DNA of 64,000 bases, taken from sequence record PZ386970.1; one strand, written 5' to 3'. Both the position numbers and the translations under genes were made by a program. Positions 3,962 through 23,086 of this stretch are shown piece by piece. The notes beneath the pieces are model-generated. The model did no database searches. It had not been told where the DNA came from and was given only the letters and a program-made list of their open reading frames with translations. Source of the stretch: a phage. Position 1 is the stretch's first letter. Each line of letters starts with the position of its first letter.

Positions 3962-4453
3962 ATGTTTGTAGATGACGTAACTCGCGCCTTCGAATCAGGT
4001 GATTTCGCTCGCCCTAACCTGTTCGAAGTAGAAATCTCTTATCTTGGGCAAAACTTTAGCTTCCAGTGTCGTGCTACGGCTCTTCCCGCTGCGATCGTTG
4101 AAAAGGTTCCTGTTTCTTATATGAACCGTAAAATTAACGTGGCTGGTGACCGTACATTTGACGATTGGACTATTACAGTAATGAACGACGATGCTCATAG
4201 TATTCGTCAGAAATTTGTTGATTGGCAAGGTATTGCAGCAGGACAAGGTAATGAAATTACCGGTGGTAAACCTGCTGAATATAAAAAGACTGCTATCGTT
4301 CGTCAATTTGCTCGTGATGCTAAAACGGTCACTAAAGAAGTTGAAATTGTTGGCTTGTGGCCTACTAACGTTGGCGAAGTATCTCTTGACTGGGACAGCA
4401 ATAACGAGATTGAAACGTTCGAAGTAACTCTTGCTCTTGATTGGTGGGAATAA
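3962..4453 (+). CDS. 19: Tail tube protein
   Basis: 163-aa ORF in T4 gp19 position and size; TATAAATA at 3882-3889. Confidence 0.9.
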   Translation: MFVDDVTRAFESGDFARPNLFEVEISYLGQNFSFQCRATALPAAIVEKVPVSYMNRKINVAGDRTFDDWTITVMNDDAHSIRQKFVDWQGIAAGQGNEITGGKPAEYKKTAIVRQFARDAKTVTKEVEIVGLWPTNVGEVSLDWDSNNEIETFEVTLALDWWE

Positions 4454-17817: not shown

Positions 17818-17845
17818 ATTATACATAGGTTGCCTTGAAGCATTA
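17818..17845 (-). promoter_or_regulatory. MotA-dependent middle promoter for uvsY (MotA box TAATGCTTCA + 12 bp + TATAAT)
   Basis: Minus-strand reading TAATGCTTCAAGGCAACCTATGTATAATGG; MotA box overlaps the gene 25 stop codon. Confidence 0.65.
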
Positions 17846-18241
17846 CACTCTATTGCTTGACGCTAACTGAAGTTTAATTTGTTCAATATCGTCAGGGTTG
17901 TCTACGACCGAAAATCTAATCTCTACTATAACCGTATAGTCATCATATACTGGCGTTACACTTACAGAAAGTTTGTCGATGCGTGGCTCATAGTTACGAA
18001 CAGCTGCCTGGATATTACGCTCAATCGTATCGGCTGTAAGTGGTGTCATATTCTCGAAAAGTTCATCAACCAAATCGCATCCAAATTCAGGGTCGAAGGG
18101 GCGCGAGCCTTTTCTAGTTGTCACTATGCCAAGAAGACTATTTTTAATAGAACGAAGTCCTACAGAACGAGCAACGTCCTTATTCCAATCCATACGCATT
18201 TCTGGGTCGATATCTGAATAAAGTTTATTGATATTAGACAT
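17843..18241 (-). CDS. 25: Baseplate wedge subunit gp25
   Basis: 132-aa ORF; near-identical to T4 gp25 from memory (MSNINKLYSDIDPEM...QLASSNRV). Confidence 0.92.
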   Translation of the reverse strand: MSNINKLYSDIDPEMRMDWNKDVARSVGLRSIKNSLLGIVTTRKGSRPFDPEFGCDLVDELFENMTPLTADTIERNIQAAVRNYEPRIDKLSVSVTPVYDDYTVIVEIRFSVVDNPDDIEQIKLQLASSNRV

Positions 18242-18867
18242 TATAGTAACTCAAAGAATTCTTTGAGGCCTCGTATTGTGTGAACGTGTGACGCCCCACA
18301 TTTGGGACATTTAATAGGGGTTGCCAGATAAATTGATGGCGACACCAAAAGATTTTTAATATTGATCATGTCATCTTCTGTTATAAGGCCGTAAAGGTCG
18401 TTTATTTCTGCTTCAGTTAAATCTTCAACAGGGATGGACTCTCCATTGACAAAAACAGCCTCAATACATGAAGCAATCATTAATGCGATATTTTTATCAT
18501 CAAATAATTTAGGTTGACGGAACTTAATTTTAATACCACTGAACGAATACCAGGGATCGGCCTGTTCATCTAATTGAGTGTGCAATAAATTCATATAGAC
18601 TTGAAATGAATGCCCACAGGAACAATTCCAGGTGTGTTCTTGATTCACTTCACCTAATGAATGTGCCCACAGATTTACTAACAATAGCTCGGCTTCTTGT
18701 TTAGACAAGTTTTTAGCATTAGAGCAATTAGTGATAATATTGTTCACTGCTGATTCAATAGTACCGGTAGCACGAGCACCTATGAGCCCTAAATATTCTT
18801 TTAAAGTAAAGGCTCTACAATTCACTTCTTTATCGCCTAAACGTACGGTAAACGTATATTTGTACAT
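18241..18867 (-). CDS. 26: Baseplate hub subunit gp26
   Basis: 208-aa ORF coupled to gene 25; position and size of T4 gp26; C-terminal CPKCG motif. Confidence 0.8.
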   Translation of the reverse strand: MYKYTFTVRLGDKEVNCRAFTLKEYLGLIGARATGTIESAVNNIITNCSNAKNLSKQEAELLLVNLWAHSLGEVNQEHTWNCSCGHSFQVYMNLLHTQLDEQADPWYSFSGIKIKFRQPKLFDDKNIALMIASCIEAVFVNGESIPVEDLTEAEINDLYGLITEDDMINIKNLLVSPSIYLATPIKCPKCGASHVHTIRGLKEFFELL

Positions 18868-18885
18868 GTTAACTCCTTTATTGTG

Positions 18886-18897
18886 TATTTATAAATA
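18886..18897. promoter_or_regulatory. Divergent overlapping late promoters (TATTTATAAATA) for genes 26-25 (-) and 51 (+)
   Basis: The 12-mer contains TATAAATA on both strands (18890-18897 on +, 18886-18893 on -). Confidence 0.6.
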
Positions 18898-18914
18898 ATA
18901 GAAAAGGAGTAATT

Positions 18915-19667
18915 ATGGCTAATATAATTCGTTGTAAATTACCGGATGGTGTTCATCGTTTTAAGCCGTTCACCGTGGCGGATTATAGAGACTTTTTACT
19001 AGTTAGAAATGATATCGAACATCGTTCGCCACAAGAACAAAAAGAAATAATTGCCGATCTGATTGATGATTATTTTGGCGAGTACCCTAAAACATGGCAA
19101 CCATTTATATTTCTGCAAGTTTTTGCAGGCTCTATAGGCAAAACAAAAGTTCCCGTTATTTTCACTTGCCCTAAATGCTCTAAAGAAAAAACTGCACCAT
19201 TTGAGATATATCAAAAAGAACTAGTCGAACCTGAACTTGATGTTGCTGGTATAAAAATACGTTTTTCTTTCCCTGAAAAGTTTTATGACAATAAAGCATT
19301 AATGATAAGTGAAAACATAAAAGAAATATATTATAATGATGAATGGTACCCATGGAATGATTTGACTGAAGAGAACCAAATCCAAGTAATAGAAGCAATA
19401 GACATTGACTCGCTCGAGAAGGTTATTGCTTCTATGAACCCTATTAATTTGACCCTTAGATTAGGTTGTTGTGAACGTCATGTTAAAACATATACTGATA
19501 TCTTAGAGGTTTTTAAATTGTTAGTTAACCCTGATGAGATTTTTACATTCTATCAGATAAACCATTCACTAGTAAAGAGTCAATACACATTGGATTCTAT
19601 TATGCAAATGATTCCTGTTGAACGTGGTATTGCTTTAACATTAGTAGAAAAGGACCATAAAAAATGA
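18915..19667 (+). CDS. 51: Baseplate hub assembly protein gp51
   Basis: 250-aa ORF divergent from 26; synteny with T4 gene 51; shares sequence blocks with gp26. Confidence 0.8.
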
Positions 19668-20836
19668 CAGTATTCCAACGTCCAGGATATCCTAACTTAA
19701 GCGTTAAATTATACCAAGATTATTCGGCTTGGCAAGAAAATAGATACGTTGAACTCGCAGCAACAATAACAACTTTAACCATGCGAGATTCGCTATATGG
19801 AAGAAATGAAGGGATTCTTCAATTTTATGACACTAAAAACATCCACACTAAAATGGATGGTAGACAGATAGTCCAAATCTCTGTTTCAAATTCAAACACA
19901 CCTCTCCAAGTTAGAACTCGAATTTATGGATGTAGACATTATTCTGTGTCTGTGGACTCAAAAGGTGACAATATTATTGCAATTGAGCTTGGAACAATAC
20001 ATTCTATAGAGAACCTTAAATTTGGGCGTCCGTTCTTCCCAGACGCAGGAGAATCTATACGTGAAATGTTAGGTGTCATATATAAAGACCGTACGTTAAT
20101 TACTCCGCCAATAAACACTATTAATGCTTATGTTCCTGATATTCCTTGGACAAGCACATTTGATGATTATTTGGCATATGTCAGAGAATTAGGACTTGCT
20201 ACAGCGAGTGATAAGTTCGTATTCGTATGGCAAGATATTTTAGGCGTAAACATGATTGACTATGATACTCTTATTGGTCAAGAAGGCATTAAGATGATTG
20301 TAGGTGAGCCAAATACCGTAGGTCAGTATATTCAAGAGCTTGAGTATCCATTAGTATGGGATTTTACCTGGATGACTAAAGCCAACCAATTTACAAGAGA
20401 CCCTATTAAAAACGCCACGATATTCGCCCATTCATTTTTAGATACATCTATTCCGGTTATTGTTACAGGTGATGGTGATAATGCTATTCTTGTGTCAAGA
20501 TCTGGTGGATATTCCGAAATGACCTATCGTAATGGATTTGAAGAAGCAAGTCGTCTTCAGACAATGGCTCAATATGACGGATATGCTAAATGCACTACTA
20601 CAGGTAATTTTAACATAACGCCTGCTACTAAAATTATATTTGTTGACCAAAAGAACCAATTCAAATCCGAATTTTACGTGGATGAAGTTATTCATGAGTT
20701 ATCAAATAACAACTCACAAACTCATCTGTACATGTTTACCAACTCAATGGTGTTAGAACCTGTTAACCCAGTTAAGGTTAAAAATGAACTTAAATCTGAT
20801 TCTACCTCTAAAGAAAATAATTCTACCACAGTCTAA
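19664..20836 (+). CDS. 27: Baseplate hub subunit gp27
   Basis: 390-aa ORF (T4 gp27 391 aa); ATGA overlap with gene 51. Confidence 0.85.
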
Positions 20837-21317
20837 TAAAAAGGTAATGATTCCTAAATTAGGGCTCAAACATTATAATCTTTTAAAGGACGTTAAAGGA
20901 CCTGATGAAAACATGAAAATCTTAGCTGATTCTATTTGTAAAAATATGAGTCCCGCAGATTTTGATTTTGCATGTCTACATATATTGGAATTTAATAACA
21001 AACTTAAGTCTGAAGTTGAAAAAGACGGATTCACATATAAACTAGATGACGTCTATGTATGCCAACGAACAGAATTCCAATTCCAAGGCAATACTTTTTA
21101 TTTTAGACCTCCAGGCAAATTTGAACAATTCGCTACAATCAGTGAAATGTTATCAAATTGCTTAATAAAAGTTAATGACGAAGAGAAAGAAATTTCTTTC
21201 CTTGAGATGCCTGCTTTTGTAATCAAATGGGCAGAAGACCTTTCGACAACTATTGCTATTCCAGGCCCTAATGGCCCTATTAAGGGTATAGCAGAAATTA
21301 TTGGATTGCTTGAATGA
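20784..21317 (+). CDS. 28: Baseplate hub distal subunit gp28
   Basis: 177-aa ORF in T4 gp28 position and size. Confidence 0.8.
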
Positions 21318-23086
21318 AACCTGAAGAAATGAAATCCATGCGTAGAAATAAGGTCATTGCCGATAATAAACCACAAAAAGTAGCTGCAACAGCAGCTACC
21401 GATTCATTAGAAGCATTGAATGATATTTCATCAAAACTAGACGATGTCCAAGCCGCGTCTGAACTCACATCGCAAAGTGTAGAAGATAAAGGCAATGGAA
21501 TTATTGAATCAATTGGAGACTTAAAGAATTCGACAGATAATACTGCTGAAGGCACAGAGCTTATCGCAGAAGTTATTGAAAAACAAACTGAAGTCACTAA
21601 AAGTATAAACGAAGTTTCTAGTGCAATAAGCTCTAAGTTAGACCGATTAGCTACATTATTAGAGCAAAAATTACAAACATCTACCGCTATTCAAAATACA
21701 GGAGGCACCTCTCTTGAAGTAATTGAGAACGCGATACCTGTTAAAGTGGTTGAGAACGAAACTTCTGATGAGTTGTTTAAAGCATTCCCTACACCTGAAA
21801 AGATTGATAATAAGCCAGACGAAGATTTCTTCCCTGCGCCGGTTCAAGAAAGTGCTAATTCTACTTCCGATTCTAAAGGTGGAATTAGCTTTAAATTGAG
21901 CGATAAAATTGCAATGCTCACCAAAACAGTTCAAACCGGGTTTAATAAATCAATATCAATTTCAGACAGAATTGCTGGAATGCTTTTCAAATACACTATA
22001 ACGGCTGCTATTGAAGCAGCAAAAATGGCCGCACTTATTCTTGGTATTGTTATCGGTATTGATTTATTGATAGTCCATTTCAAATATTGGACAGACAAGT
22101 TCACTTCTGCCTGGGATTTATTTGATGAAAACTTTACTAAATTCTCCGATGAAGCTAAAGAGTGGGGTAAATTCTTAAGTGATATATTCACTTCTATTGA
22201 CTCGATAAAACAATTGTGGGAAGCTGGAGACTGGGGTGGTTTAACCGTTGCTATTGTCAAAGGTGTAGGAACAGCATTAATGAACTTAGGTGAACTAATT
22301 CAATTAGGAATGGCTAAACTCTCCGCGTCTATATTGCGTGCTATAGGTTTTGGTGATACCGCGGACGAAATAGAAGGACGTGCTTTGGAAGGATTCCAAG
22401 AAACTACTGGGAACAAATTAAAGAAAGAAGACCAAGAGAAAGTCGCTAAATATCAAATGAAACGTGACGATGGGGAATTAGGAACCGTTTCTAAAGGTCT
22501 TGATATGTTACAACGCGGCAAAACATTCGTTACTAACTGGGTTCGTGGTAATGACAATAAAGAAGAGTTTAGTACAAGCGATGAGCGTGCTGCGGAATCG
22601 GCAAAATTAAAAGAGTTACCTGAAGAGGAACGTAAAGAGGCATACATAAAAGCTAATGAAACTCGTGCGGCACTGGTTAGATTTGAGGATTATATCGATA
22701 AAATCGATATGACTAATCCAGAAAATGCTAAAAACGTCGAGAAGTCTTATGCTGATTTAAGTAAACTTATTAAAGACCCTGAACTTAATAAAACTCCTGT
22801 TGTTAAAAAGGAAATAGATGCTAGATTTGAAAAGCTAAATAATAAAATGGCTGAAGCCAAAAAGGCTCAGACAACAGTTAAGCCTGAATCTTCGACTAAA
22901 TCTCCAGAAGCAAAACAAGTTCAGTCGATAGAGAAAGGACGTGCTTCTGAATCTAAACAACAGCAACCGGTAGCGGCAATTAGTAACACAAATAATGTCG
23001 TCAAAAAGAATACCGTAGTCCAGAATATGACCCCTGTAACAAGTACAACGGCTCCTGGAATTTTCCATGCCACCGGTGTTAATTAA
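21314..23086 (+). CDS. 29: Baseplate hub subunit / tail length determinator gp29
   Basis: 590-aa ORF (T4 gp29 590 aa); synteny. Confidence 0.85.
   Translation: MKPEEMKSMRRNKVIADNKPQKVAATAATDSLEALNDISSKLDDVQAASELTSQSVEDKGNGIIESIGDLKNSTDNTAEGTELIAEVIEKQTEVTKSINEVSSAISSKLDRLATLLEQKLQTSTAIQNTGGTSLEVIENAIPVKVVENETSDELFKAFPTPEKIDNKPDEDFFPAPVQESANSTSDSKGGISFKLSDKIAMLTKTVQTGFNKSISISDRIAGMLFKYTITAAIEAAKMAALILGIVIGIDLLIVHFKYWTDKFTSAWDLFDENFTKFSDEAKEWGKFLSDIFTSIDSIKQLWEAGDWGGLTVAIVKGVGTALMNLGELIQLGMAKLSASILRAIGFGDTADEIEGRALEGFQETTGNKLKKEDQEKVAKYQMKRDDGELGTVSKGLDMLQRGKTFVTNWVRGNDNKEEFSTSDERAAESAKLKELPEEERKEAYIKANETRAALVRFEDYIDKIDMTNPENAKNVEKSYADLSKLIKDPELNKTPVVKKEIDARFEKLNNKMAEAKKAQTTVKPESSTKSPEAKQVQSIEKGRASESKQQQPVAAISNTNNVVKKNTVVQNMTPVTSTTAPGIFHATGVN

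Follow-up and report, generated by a model that had tools for sequence, protein, structure and literature searches.

Genes 26 and 51 in the 64,000-nucleotide stretch of phage DNA analysed here (PZ386970.1; the window) most probably (probability roughly 0.85) encode the tail assembly chaperone in its short and long form, after duplication and fusion, and are expressed from overlapping late promoters. The window belongs to an RB69-like T4-type phage (Mosigvirus) carrying the two genes as paralogs, and the pair is orthologous to that of T4, with gp26 62% identical to T4 gp26. The closest records are Mosigvirus (RB69-like), which makes the 62% an ordinary genus-level difference and speaks against a Tequatrovirus with mosaic gene 26, a reading considered and rejected. 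In the proposed scheme, the whole of gp26 and residues 1–203 of gp51 are predicted to form one alpha/beta fold with a conserved four-cysteine site, to which gp51 adds a three-helix tail of ~47 residues. In relatives with a single gene, other than those of Ackermann type, a -1 frameshift at T_TTT_TTC would yield a short and a long protein with a common N-terminus, and in a T4-type sub-lineage duplication plus in-frame fusion would have given two genes that replace the frameshift.

Gene 26, presumed to encode the short form, lies on the minus strand (18241–18867; 208-aa ORF, protein ending GLKEFFELL) and gene 51 on the plus strand (18915–19667; 250 aa), where PF12322 and hhalign delimit an N-terminal gp26-like domain (residues 1–203; 18915–19523). 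PF12322 matches gp26 over residues 1–206 (E = 3.3e-60, 203.9 bits) and gp51 over residues 1–201 (E = 4.6e-59, 200.2 bits), in both cases above the curated Pfam cut-off of 24.5 bits, and both proteins match PHROG 150 (gp26, E = 8.6e-66; gp51, E = 4.7e-89). Full-length membership of both proteins in PF12322 (T4_baseplate) and PHROG 150 (‘baseplate hub’) already implies their paralogy; the family names are silent on any function as chaperones, and the gp51 tail belongs to a family of its own.

Direct comparison gave the same answer: BLASTP aligned the two proteins with 28% identity across 156 aa (E = 3e-10), and comparison of family against family with hhalign paired gp26 10–208 with gp51 8–203 (probability 99.2%, E = 7.6e-20, 189 columns). 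Chance similarity is ruled out by this profile comparison and by shuffled controls, in which none of 2000 shuffles equalled the Smith-Waterman score of 113 (shuffles 31.7 +/- 5.0, maximum 62, z = 16.2). In high-confidence AlphaFold2 models (gp26: pLDDT 92.2, pTM 0.85) the order of helices and strands is identical up to residue ~203; Foldseek with the gp51 model recovered gp26 entries in BFVD (E = 1e-10, TM 0.54), and gp26-type and gp51-type entries find each other reciprocally. The paralogy proposed in the earlier note is thus borne out by pairwise alignment, profile-profile comparison and structure prediction alike, and gp26 and gp51 are true, homologous paralogs. Two of the three aligned blocks cited there also hold, gp26 16–29 (NCRAFTLKEYLGLI) pairing with gp51 14–28 in the profile-profile alignment and gp26 110–133 with gp51 111–133 in both BLASTP and hhalign.

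The third block, a CPKCG motif matched with CPKCS, was rejected, as the two motifs belong to different cysteine pairs in the BLASTP and hhalign alignments: CPKCG is gp26 187–191, the C-terminal pair, and CPKCS is gp51 85–89, the first pair. The correct correspondence is gp26 C82/C84 (18616–18624, minus strand) with gp51 C85-P-K-C88 (19167–19178, plus strand), and gp26 C187-P-K-C190 (18298–18309, minus strand) with gp51 C185/C186 (19467–19472, plus strand), the partners of C85/C88. Among 36 gp26 sequences, conservation is complete for C82, C187 and C190 and at least 90% for C84; among 47 gp51 sequences it is complete for C85, C88 and C186 and at least 90% for C185. In the AlphaFold2 models of both proteins the pairs are located in two predicted beta-hairpins, and the four conserved cysteines may form a putative zinc site. 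These cysteines are missing in MA10, phiN3 and phiP4-3.

Beyond the common domain gp51 carries a C-terminal extension (residues 204–250 plus the stop codon; 19524–19667, plus strand) with three predicted helices (208–221, 226–231 and 234–249). PHROG 634 matches gp51 residues 200–250 (E = 4.8e-10) and ties this tail to small ORFs of the cyanophage MA10 (2e-17), the Rhizobium phage Y68 (1.7e-12) and the Cronobacter phage S13 (1.4e-11); PF28602 is present on gp51 homologs in the database’s precomputed list. With an HMM from T4-type gp51 tails alone, the small ORF of MA10 went undetected (E = 4.1) and that of S13 was matched weakly (E = 0.057), and PHROG 634 and a larger survey were needed to make the link. 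That survey covered 113 non-redundant single-gene loci of more distant T4-like phages, 11 of them Ackermann-type. The T4-type tail HMM matched 90 of the 113 predicted extensions at E < 0.01 and, conversely, an HMM from the 113 -1-frame extensions had the gp51 tail as its sole match among the ORFs of the window (E = 3.2e-6). In gp51, a gp26-like domain is followed by a ~47-residue tail homologous to small ‘gp51’ ORFs that are free-standing or lie in the -1 frame.

In all 113 loci there is one gp26-like gene, with the tail-encoding -1 frame directly behind it; this frame is open for 53–75 codons in 113/113, whereas the +1 frame stays open for 7 codons at the median and 37 at most. Since in these loci the counterpart of the gp51 tail follows the only gp26-like gene in the -1 frame, gp26 and gp51 can be read as the short and long forms of a chaperone. 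An in-frame NNT_TTT_TTN, providing the slippery T_TTT_TTN, is present in all 102 non-Ackermann loci, 0–8 codons (mostly 0–1) ahead of the gp26-like stop, where codon usage predicts ~0.23 per locus; the codon before TTT_TTN varies (AAT, GAT, AGT, GCT, TCT, ACT, CAT), always ending in T. The canonical heptamer is absent from the 11 Ackermann-type loci. Frameshifting is predicted from these patterns for the single-gene relatives. In T4-type phages the heptamer was kept at the FF site in 0 of 11 distinct gene 26 3′ ends, and gene 26 of the window ends in GAA TTC TTT GAG, without a slippery heptamer; with genes 26 and 51 separate and divergent, the long form in the window does not come from a -1 frameshift.

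Single-gene phages have the order gp54, gp26-like gene, small gp51 and then a protein of ~570–650 aa. This protein directly follows the pair in D479 and S13, and is preceded by an ORF of ~136–139 aa in phiN3 and Y68. It has weak matches to tape-measure PHROGs in D479 (2.3e-10) and phiN3 (3.5e-5), and is of unknown function by PHROG search in S13 and Y68. In MA10 and ChubbyThor (Ackermannviridae), the gene after the pair is gp5-like and not a tape measure gene. The window has the order 51-27-28-29 on the plus strand, with gene 26 on the opposite strand. Gene 29 (21314–23086, plus strand) matches PHROG 1283, ‘baseplate hub subunit and tail length’ (E = 2e-228), and its tape measure/hub product is the presumed chaperone client; gp26 and gp51 would chaperone gp29 and recruit the tube protein.

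An improbable alternative is that a structural hub subunit simply underwent tandem-inverted duplication, with the small ‘gp51’ ORFs either unrelated or independently translated. Many records do label gp26 and gp51 ‘baseplate hub’, and older genetic work cited in PMC3004832 put gp26 among the hub components; the same paper lists both proteins as hub assembly chaperones and describes gp51 as needed for assembly yet missing from the particle, which speaks against a structural subunit. Independent translation would fit Y68, phiN3 and MA10, where an ATG stands at the start of the small ORF, but many of these ORFs lack a usable start codon, the first ATG lying more than 15 codons into the extension, or being missing altogether, in 72 of the 113 loci. 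Also at odds with this account are the homology of the gp51 tail to the small ORFs and the heptamer itself, kept at synonymous sites in 102/102 loci and lost in the two-gene phages.

The chaperone reading with duplication and fusion also implies a direction of change. The two-gene state was seen only in part of the Straboviridae (Tevenvirinae, Twarogvirinae, Krischvirus, Bragavirus and Tulanevirus), and a single gene in Kyanoviridae, Pootjesviridae, Ackermannviridae and Emdodecavirus, as well as in other Straboviridae (S13, AS-zj) and the KVP40-like vibriophage D479. Opposite polarity, in which a two-gene ancestor as in T4 gave rise to a single gene with a -1 ORF through loss and fission, has a very low probability in our estimate. 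Presence and absence alone do not reveal the direction of change, and the grouping of gp26 with the gp51 N-domain in a neighbour-joining tree has just 68% bootstrap support, a modest value from a crude distance method. However, a single gene with this heptamer is present in five or more families or lineages, several of these within Straboviridae, and the genera with two genes form one cluster; it is unlikely that many lineages acquired an identical slippery site and -1 register separately. The duplication is therefore probably derived. Of the ‘ancient inverted duplication of a hub-assembly gene’ suggested previously, the paralogy stands; the copies are not equivalent, as gp51 has an extra module, and the confinement of the two-gene state to one part of Straboviridae argues against ‘ancient’.

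Genes 26 and 51 are separated by a 47-bp control region (18868–18914) that is nearly mirror-symmetric, reading Shine-Dalgarno, spacer, palindromic promoter core, spacer, Shine-Dalgarno. The core is TATTTATAAATA (18886–18897), its own reverse complement, and contains two overlapping T4-type late promoter boxes, both perfect TATAAATA octamers: one on the plus strand (18890–18897) for gene 51 and presumably the genes downstream, and one on the minus strand (18886–18893) for gene 26 and presumably gene 25. The upstream distance from the start codon is 17 nt for the gene 51 box and 18 nt for the gene 26 box, and CTCCTTT (18874–18880) and AAAGGAG (18903–18909) each lie 14.5 nt from the palindrome centre. 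The two genes would be transcribed outwards from two gp55-type late promoters with boxes overlapping by 4 bp, each box being followed by a leader of 12–13 nt with AAAGGAG. By definition, the gp55-dependent T4-type late promoter has its motif at about -13 to -6 and no -35 element (PMC1524935). Predicted transcription starts are near 18903 for gene 51, with a 12-nt leader (AAAGGAGUAAUU) before the ATG at 18915, and near 18880 for gene 26, with a 13-nt leader (UAAAGGAGUUAAC) before the ATG at 18867. The earlier note had described one shared palindromic late promoter; the palindrome with TATAAATA on both strands was found as described, and it comprises two overlapping promoters with 4 bp in common.

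T4 has the orthologous site in its baseplate cluster, with the same palindrome and, between genes 26 and 51, one TATAAATA box on each strand, in a spacer of 50 bp compared with 47 bp in the window. Overlapping divergent late promoters have reportedly been mapped at this site in T4 (Scarlato et al., Virology 1989;171:475); the RefSeq T4 record has no promoter features annotated there. TATTTATAAATA is conserved in T4 and phiP4-3, and of 9 distinct T4-type spacers taken from IMG/VR 8 have it, with gp51 down to ~49% identity; the spacer measures 47–53 bp in the IMG/VR T4-type relatives and 45–70 bp in annotated records. It is highly improbable that the palindrome is a by-product of A+T-rich sequence, with one box or neither working and the genes read from elsewhere: TATAAATA is short, with ~5 copies per strand expected by composition in 64 kb (an estimate) and 15 on the plus and 4 on the minus strand counted in the window, but TATTTATAAATA is expected only 0.05 times per window (one copy present; a copy in 5 of 100 shuffles), is kept across the relatives just listed and, within the 47-bp spacer, is correctly spaced from the start codon of either gene, with Shine-Dalgarno leaders to match.

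In the lambda G / G-T type of system, the short domain has the tape measure protein as its binding partner and the extension the tail tube protein, and the conserved -1 frameshift upstream of the tape measure gene was reportedly described by Xu, Hendrix & Duda in 2004. Like G and G-T, gp26 and gp51 share their N-terminal part and the long form has an extra C-terminal module; in their single-gene relatives the first ORF carries a -1 slippery heptamer close to its end, and in phages of the KVP40-like and phiN3-like kinds a tape-measure-like gene lies just downstream of the pair. The need for gp51 in tail assembly and its absence from virions (PMC3004832) are further points of likeness. The T4-type pair differs in that the two forms in the window come from two divergent genes with their own promoters and not from frameshifting, that gene 51 and the tape measure gene have genes 27 and 28 between them, and that the gp26-type N-domain is larger (~200 aa), with the four-Cys site. 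It also differs in having no sequence or fold similarity to known chaperones: the Pfam Phage_TAC families gave no match to gp26 or gp51 at E <= 1 and NCBIfam none, PDB sequence searches with both proteins returned nothing below E = 0.3, and the best Foldseek hit against the PDB had E = 0.12 and TM 0.17. The chaperone assignment rests on gene architecture and the literature, since there is no detectable kinship to characterised chaperones; gp26 and gp51 would work like the G / G-T pair and are not detectable members of those protein families.

Tail assembly chaperones are described in general terms in PMC9603447. For T4-like phages, the arrangement of a short gene and a fused long gene is attributed to Vladimirov et al. 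2022 in two later papers that paraphrase it (PMC10885494, PMC12846349), and poly-T slippery sites in TAC-N genes in one of these (PMC12846349). As far as these paraphrases convey it, the TAC-N/fused-long arrangement is the same picture as the one obtained here, with no substantive difference identified. Judging by the paraphrases, the article (Vladimirov, Gautam & Davidson, Virology 2022;566:9-15; PMID 34826709) reportedly names genes 26 and 51. The gp26/gp51 chaperone arrangement appears to be real and, to the extent that the paraphrases reflect the original, already published in 2022, and the present analysis is a confirmation, not a discovery.

Gene 28 (PF11110; 20784–21317, plus strand), directly upstream of gene 29, may be a remote paralog with the gp26 fold. 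hhalign of gp28 with narrow profiles gave E = 0.005 and 0.011, and with a broad gp26 superfamily profile a probability of 83.5% (E = 8.3e-6, score 40.5; maximum score of 20 column-shuffled controls, 20.2). Foldseek also gave a match to a 175-aa ‘baseplate hub’ protein of IME13 (E = 1.8e-6), which is probably gp28. We tentatively put forward gp28 as a third paralog with the gp26/gp51 chaperone fold, shortened and very far diverged, a proposal to which we give somewhat less than even odds. If true, the T4-type lineage would have expanded one frameshifting chaperone gene into three (26, 51 and 28), and gp28 would be an assembly factor and not a hub subunit.

In several deposited genomes the small -1-frame ORF behind the gp26-like gene has no annotation (S13 and AS-zj) or is entered as a 30-aa stub (D479); it should be given as a frameshift product. 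To our knowledge, T4 is the best-studied long-tailed phage seemingly without tail assembly chaperones, and the reading favoured here would identify them. In gp26 and gp51, programmed frameshifting would have been replaced by duplication and fusion, with one gene for each of the related products.

Genes 26 and 51 would encode a short and a long tail chaperone, with gene duplication in place of frameshifting. A T4-type phage is the source of the window: over the 3.6 kb that includes the two genes, identity is 99.3% with Shigella phage ESh15 and about 99% with Shf125875, a Mosigvirus (RB69-like Tevenvirinae). The order of orfs is that of T4, with concordant Pfam and PHROG assignments: gp25 (17843–18241) and gp26 (18241–18867; 208 aa) on the minus strand, then gp51 (18915–19667; 250 aa), gp27 (19664–20836), gp28 (20784–21317) and gp29 (21314–23086) on the plus strand. 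Gene 28 begins within gene 27, in another frame, with 53 nt in common (20784–20836), as in T4, where 56 nt are shared. In T4 records (L008 803–1090; L007 4340–4627) gene 26 has a second annotated product, gp26′, of 95 aa, which is internal and in frame and covers the C-terminal part of the protein.

To judge from their sequences, gp26 and gp51 are clearly related, and the paralogy proposed in the earlier note is borne out. BLASTP aligns 156 residues at 28% identity (E=3e-10), and the Smith-Waterman score is 113 versus 31.7 ± 5.0 for 2000 shuffles (maximum 62; z=16.2), with unrelated control pairs (e.g. gp26/gp25) at background. Comparison of family profiles (36 gp26 and 47 gp51 homologs) gave 99.2% probability and E=7.6e-20 over 189 columns (gp26 10–208; gp51 8–203). 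Two sequence blocks listed in the note (gp26 16–29/gp51 14–28; gp26 110–133/gp51 111–133) fall inside this alignment, but the third does not hold as an aligned block, CPKCG (gp26 187–191) and CPKCS (gp51 85–89) being at unmatched positions. The cysteines that do align are gp26 C82/C84 with gp51 C85/C88, and gp26 C187/C190 with gp51 C185/C186; all four are invariant or nearly so within each family, which suggests a putative shared metal site. AlphaFold2 models (pLDDT 92.2 for gp26, 91.6 for gp51; pTM 0.85 each) run through strands and helices in the same order as far as residue ~203; gp51 has three further helices (208–249), and in a BFVD search each model matches the other paralog's family. 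The gp26 model also matches a 545-aa ‘Tape measure chaperone’ of Citrobacter phage Moon (A0A0A0YVM8; rank 23, E=1.5e-7, TMq 0.51). The paralogy is already present in databases, where both proteins are full-length members of PF12322 (Pfam, E~1e-60) and PHROG 150; gp51 homologs in the protein database carry PF12322 plus a second family, PF28602.

The palindrome TATTTATAAATA (18886–18897) occurs once in the window (0.05 expected) and, as the note had it, contains TATAAATA on both strands, the T4 late promoter (−13 to −6; PMC1524935). The core idea of paralogs with a palindromic promoter pair is right, except that two overlapping predicted promoters with 4 bp in common, rather than one shared promoter, lie here. 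By the −13 to −6 rule, transcription would start near 18903 for gene 51 (predicted leader AAAGGAGUAAUU) and near 18880 for gene 26 (predicted leader UAAAGGAGUUAAC). The spacer (18868–18914) is nearly mirror-symmetric, each arm reading TAAATA-N5/6-AAAGGAGT(T/A)A, so the predicted leaders of both mRNAs are almost identical, and each of the two Shine-Dalgarno elements is 14.5 nt from the palindrome centre. If the short:long chaperone ratio is important here as it is in lambda, these initiation signals offer no obvious means of setting it. Overlapping divergent late promoters were reportedly described at this site in T4 by Scarlato et al. (Virology 1989). T4 and phiP4-3 retain the 12-mer, as do 8/9 distinct T4-type spacers (47–53 bp; gp51 49–100% identical to that of the window). 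The plus- and minus-strand TATAAATA boxes of Acinetobacter phage Ac42 (L006 4952–5000) are in crossed order with a 2-bp overlap, so that the two transcripts would have complementary 5′ ends, and RB49-like FL15 (L005 4934–5003) has a perfect box on the gene 51 side only. Across the whole window exact TATAAATA is found 15 times on the plus and four times on the minus strand (composition estimate ~5 per strand).

The stretch of gp51 with no counterpart in gp26 (residues 200–250) is matched by PHROG 634 (‘hub assembly catalyst’; E=4.8e-10). This family also matches small proteins (59–65 aa) of Synechococcus phage MA10 (2e-17), Rhizobium phage Y68 (1.7e-12) and Cronobacter phage S13 (1.4e-11), each encoded directly 3′ of the sole gp26-like gene. 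The ‘gp51’ of cyanophages and vibriophages has been described as missing the first ~200 residues (Sullivan et al. 2010; PMC3037559). Gene order in the single-gene phages is gp54, gp26-like, small gp51 and then a ~570–650 aa protein, with weak tape-measure matches in D479 and phiN3. The small orf is unannotated in S13 (L002 6666–6860) and Aeromonas phage AS-zj (L009 about 4250–4440), reduced to a 30-aa stub in the annotation of Vibrio phage D479 (L011 4463–4555), and its conserved N-terminal part has no start codon in these three.

Six of eight annotated phages have a gp26-like orf that finishes in ...GL.DFF and carries T_TTT_TTC (or TTG/TTT) in frame 0–2 codons before the stop; their small orf lies in the −1 frame, open from this site. 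An IMG/VR survey gave 113 non-redundant single-gene loci, and all 102 that are non-Ackermann have NNT_TTT_TTN at the gp26-like 3′ end (~0.23 expected per locus, given the loci's own use of Phe codons and frequency of T in third positions), preceded by seven types of codon, T-ending in every case. The −1 frame is open for 53–75 codons in 113/113 loci (+1 frame: median 7, maximum 37), and the first ATG of the extension is >15 codons in, or missing, in 72. An HMM of the T4-type gp51 tail matches 90 of the 113 extensions (E<0.01); reciprocally, the gp51 tail is the sole match to the extension HMM among all window orfs (E=3.2e-6). The predicted MA10 frameshift product, ...GLADFF|LVAMMHTNLVHHYERIFAFKQY..., is colinear with gp51 (...ILEVFKLL|...), and the unshifted product of single-gene phages with gp26 (...GLKEFFELL*). 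At the FF site, none of 11 distinct T4-type gene 26 3′ ends keeps the heptamer, FF being TTC TTT or decayed. According to a paraphrase of Vladimirov et al. (PMC12846349), the ‘TAC-N genes of T4-like phages’ are known to carry poly-T slippery signals. Ackermannviridae-type gp26-like genes (L010 4280–4301, L012 4050–4070, L083–L102) end ...GAA ATT TTC ATC TAA, with A_ATT_TTC or A_CTT_TTC instead of a canonical XXXYYYZ heptamer. Their −1 frame still encodes the conserved extension (first ATG 12 codons in at 7/9 non-redundant loci), which may be expressed through non-canonical slippage on U_UUC or from a start codon other than ATG.

The two-gene divergent state is found in Tevenvirinae (window, T4), Krischvirus (FL15), Twarogvirinae (Ac42), Bragavirus (phiP4-3) and Tulanevirus (avDM3), and the single-gene state in Kyanoviridae, Pootjesviridae, Emdodecavirus, Ackermannviridae, other Straboviridae (S13, AS-zj) and KVP40-like D479, with no second gp26-like copy within the flanks of the single-gene loci examined. 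All 113 single-copy proteins score higher with the gp26 HMM (mean 53.6 bits) than with that of the gp51 N-domain (22.3 bits), pointing to gp26 as the conservative and the gp51 N-domain as the fast-evolving copy. A neighbour-joining tree places gp26 and the gp51 N-domain together, apart from single-copy genes, in 68% of bootstraps. Taxon spread, HMM scores and tree indicate that the duplication was most likely derived in one Straboviridae sub-lineage, with in-frame fusion of the extension to one copy alongside it; of the ‘ancient inverted duplication’ suggested previously, the duplication and the divergent genes stand, but probably not the ancient age.

gp28 may share the gp26 fold, on suggestive evidence. 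Matches are weak between gp26 and the gp28 PHROG (E=0.003) and between gp28 (PF11110) and gp26 with narrow profiles (E=0.005); hhalign of gp28 with a broad gp26 superfamily profile gives 83.5% probability and E=8.3e-6 over 134 colinear columns (20 column-shuffled controls scored ≤20.2). This remote, colinear similarity spans the N-terminal two thirds of the gp26 fold, and gp26/gp51 family members are the best non-self matches of the gp28 HMM. In BFVD the gp26 model matches a 175-aa ‘baseplate hub’ of IME13 (E=1.8e-6, TM 0.60), which is probably gp28, the gp28 of a related Aeromonas phage being of the same length. tblastn with gp28 finds ~1200 phage records, a number similar to T4-type gp26.

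Pfam, PDB sequence and Foldseek searches detected no membership of gp26 or gp51 in characterised chaperone protein families. Vladimirov, Gautam & Davidson (Virology 2022) reportedly described the arrangement, according to two citing papers (PMC10885494, PMC12846349); the short/long chaperone explanation appears to have been published there already, and the present analysis to be an independent re-derivation of it. As in lambda G/G-T, a short and a long form have a common N-terminus, although the window uses two genes where the lambda type uses a frameshift, and by analogy the pair would function like G/G-T. That gp26 and gp51 are short and long tail chaperones, duplication having replaced frameshifting, is well supported.
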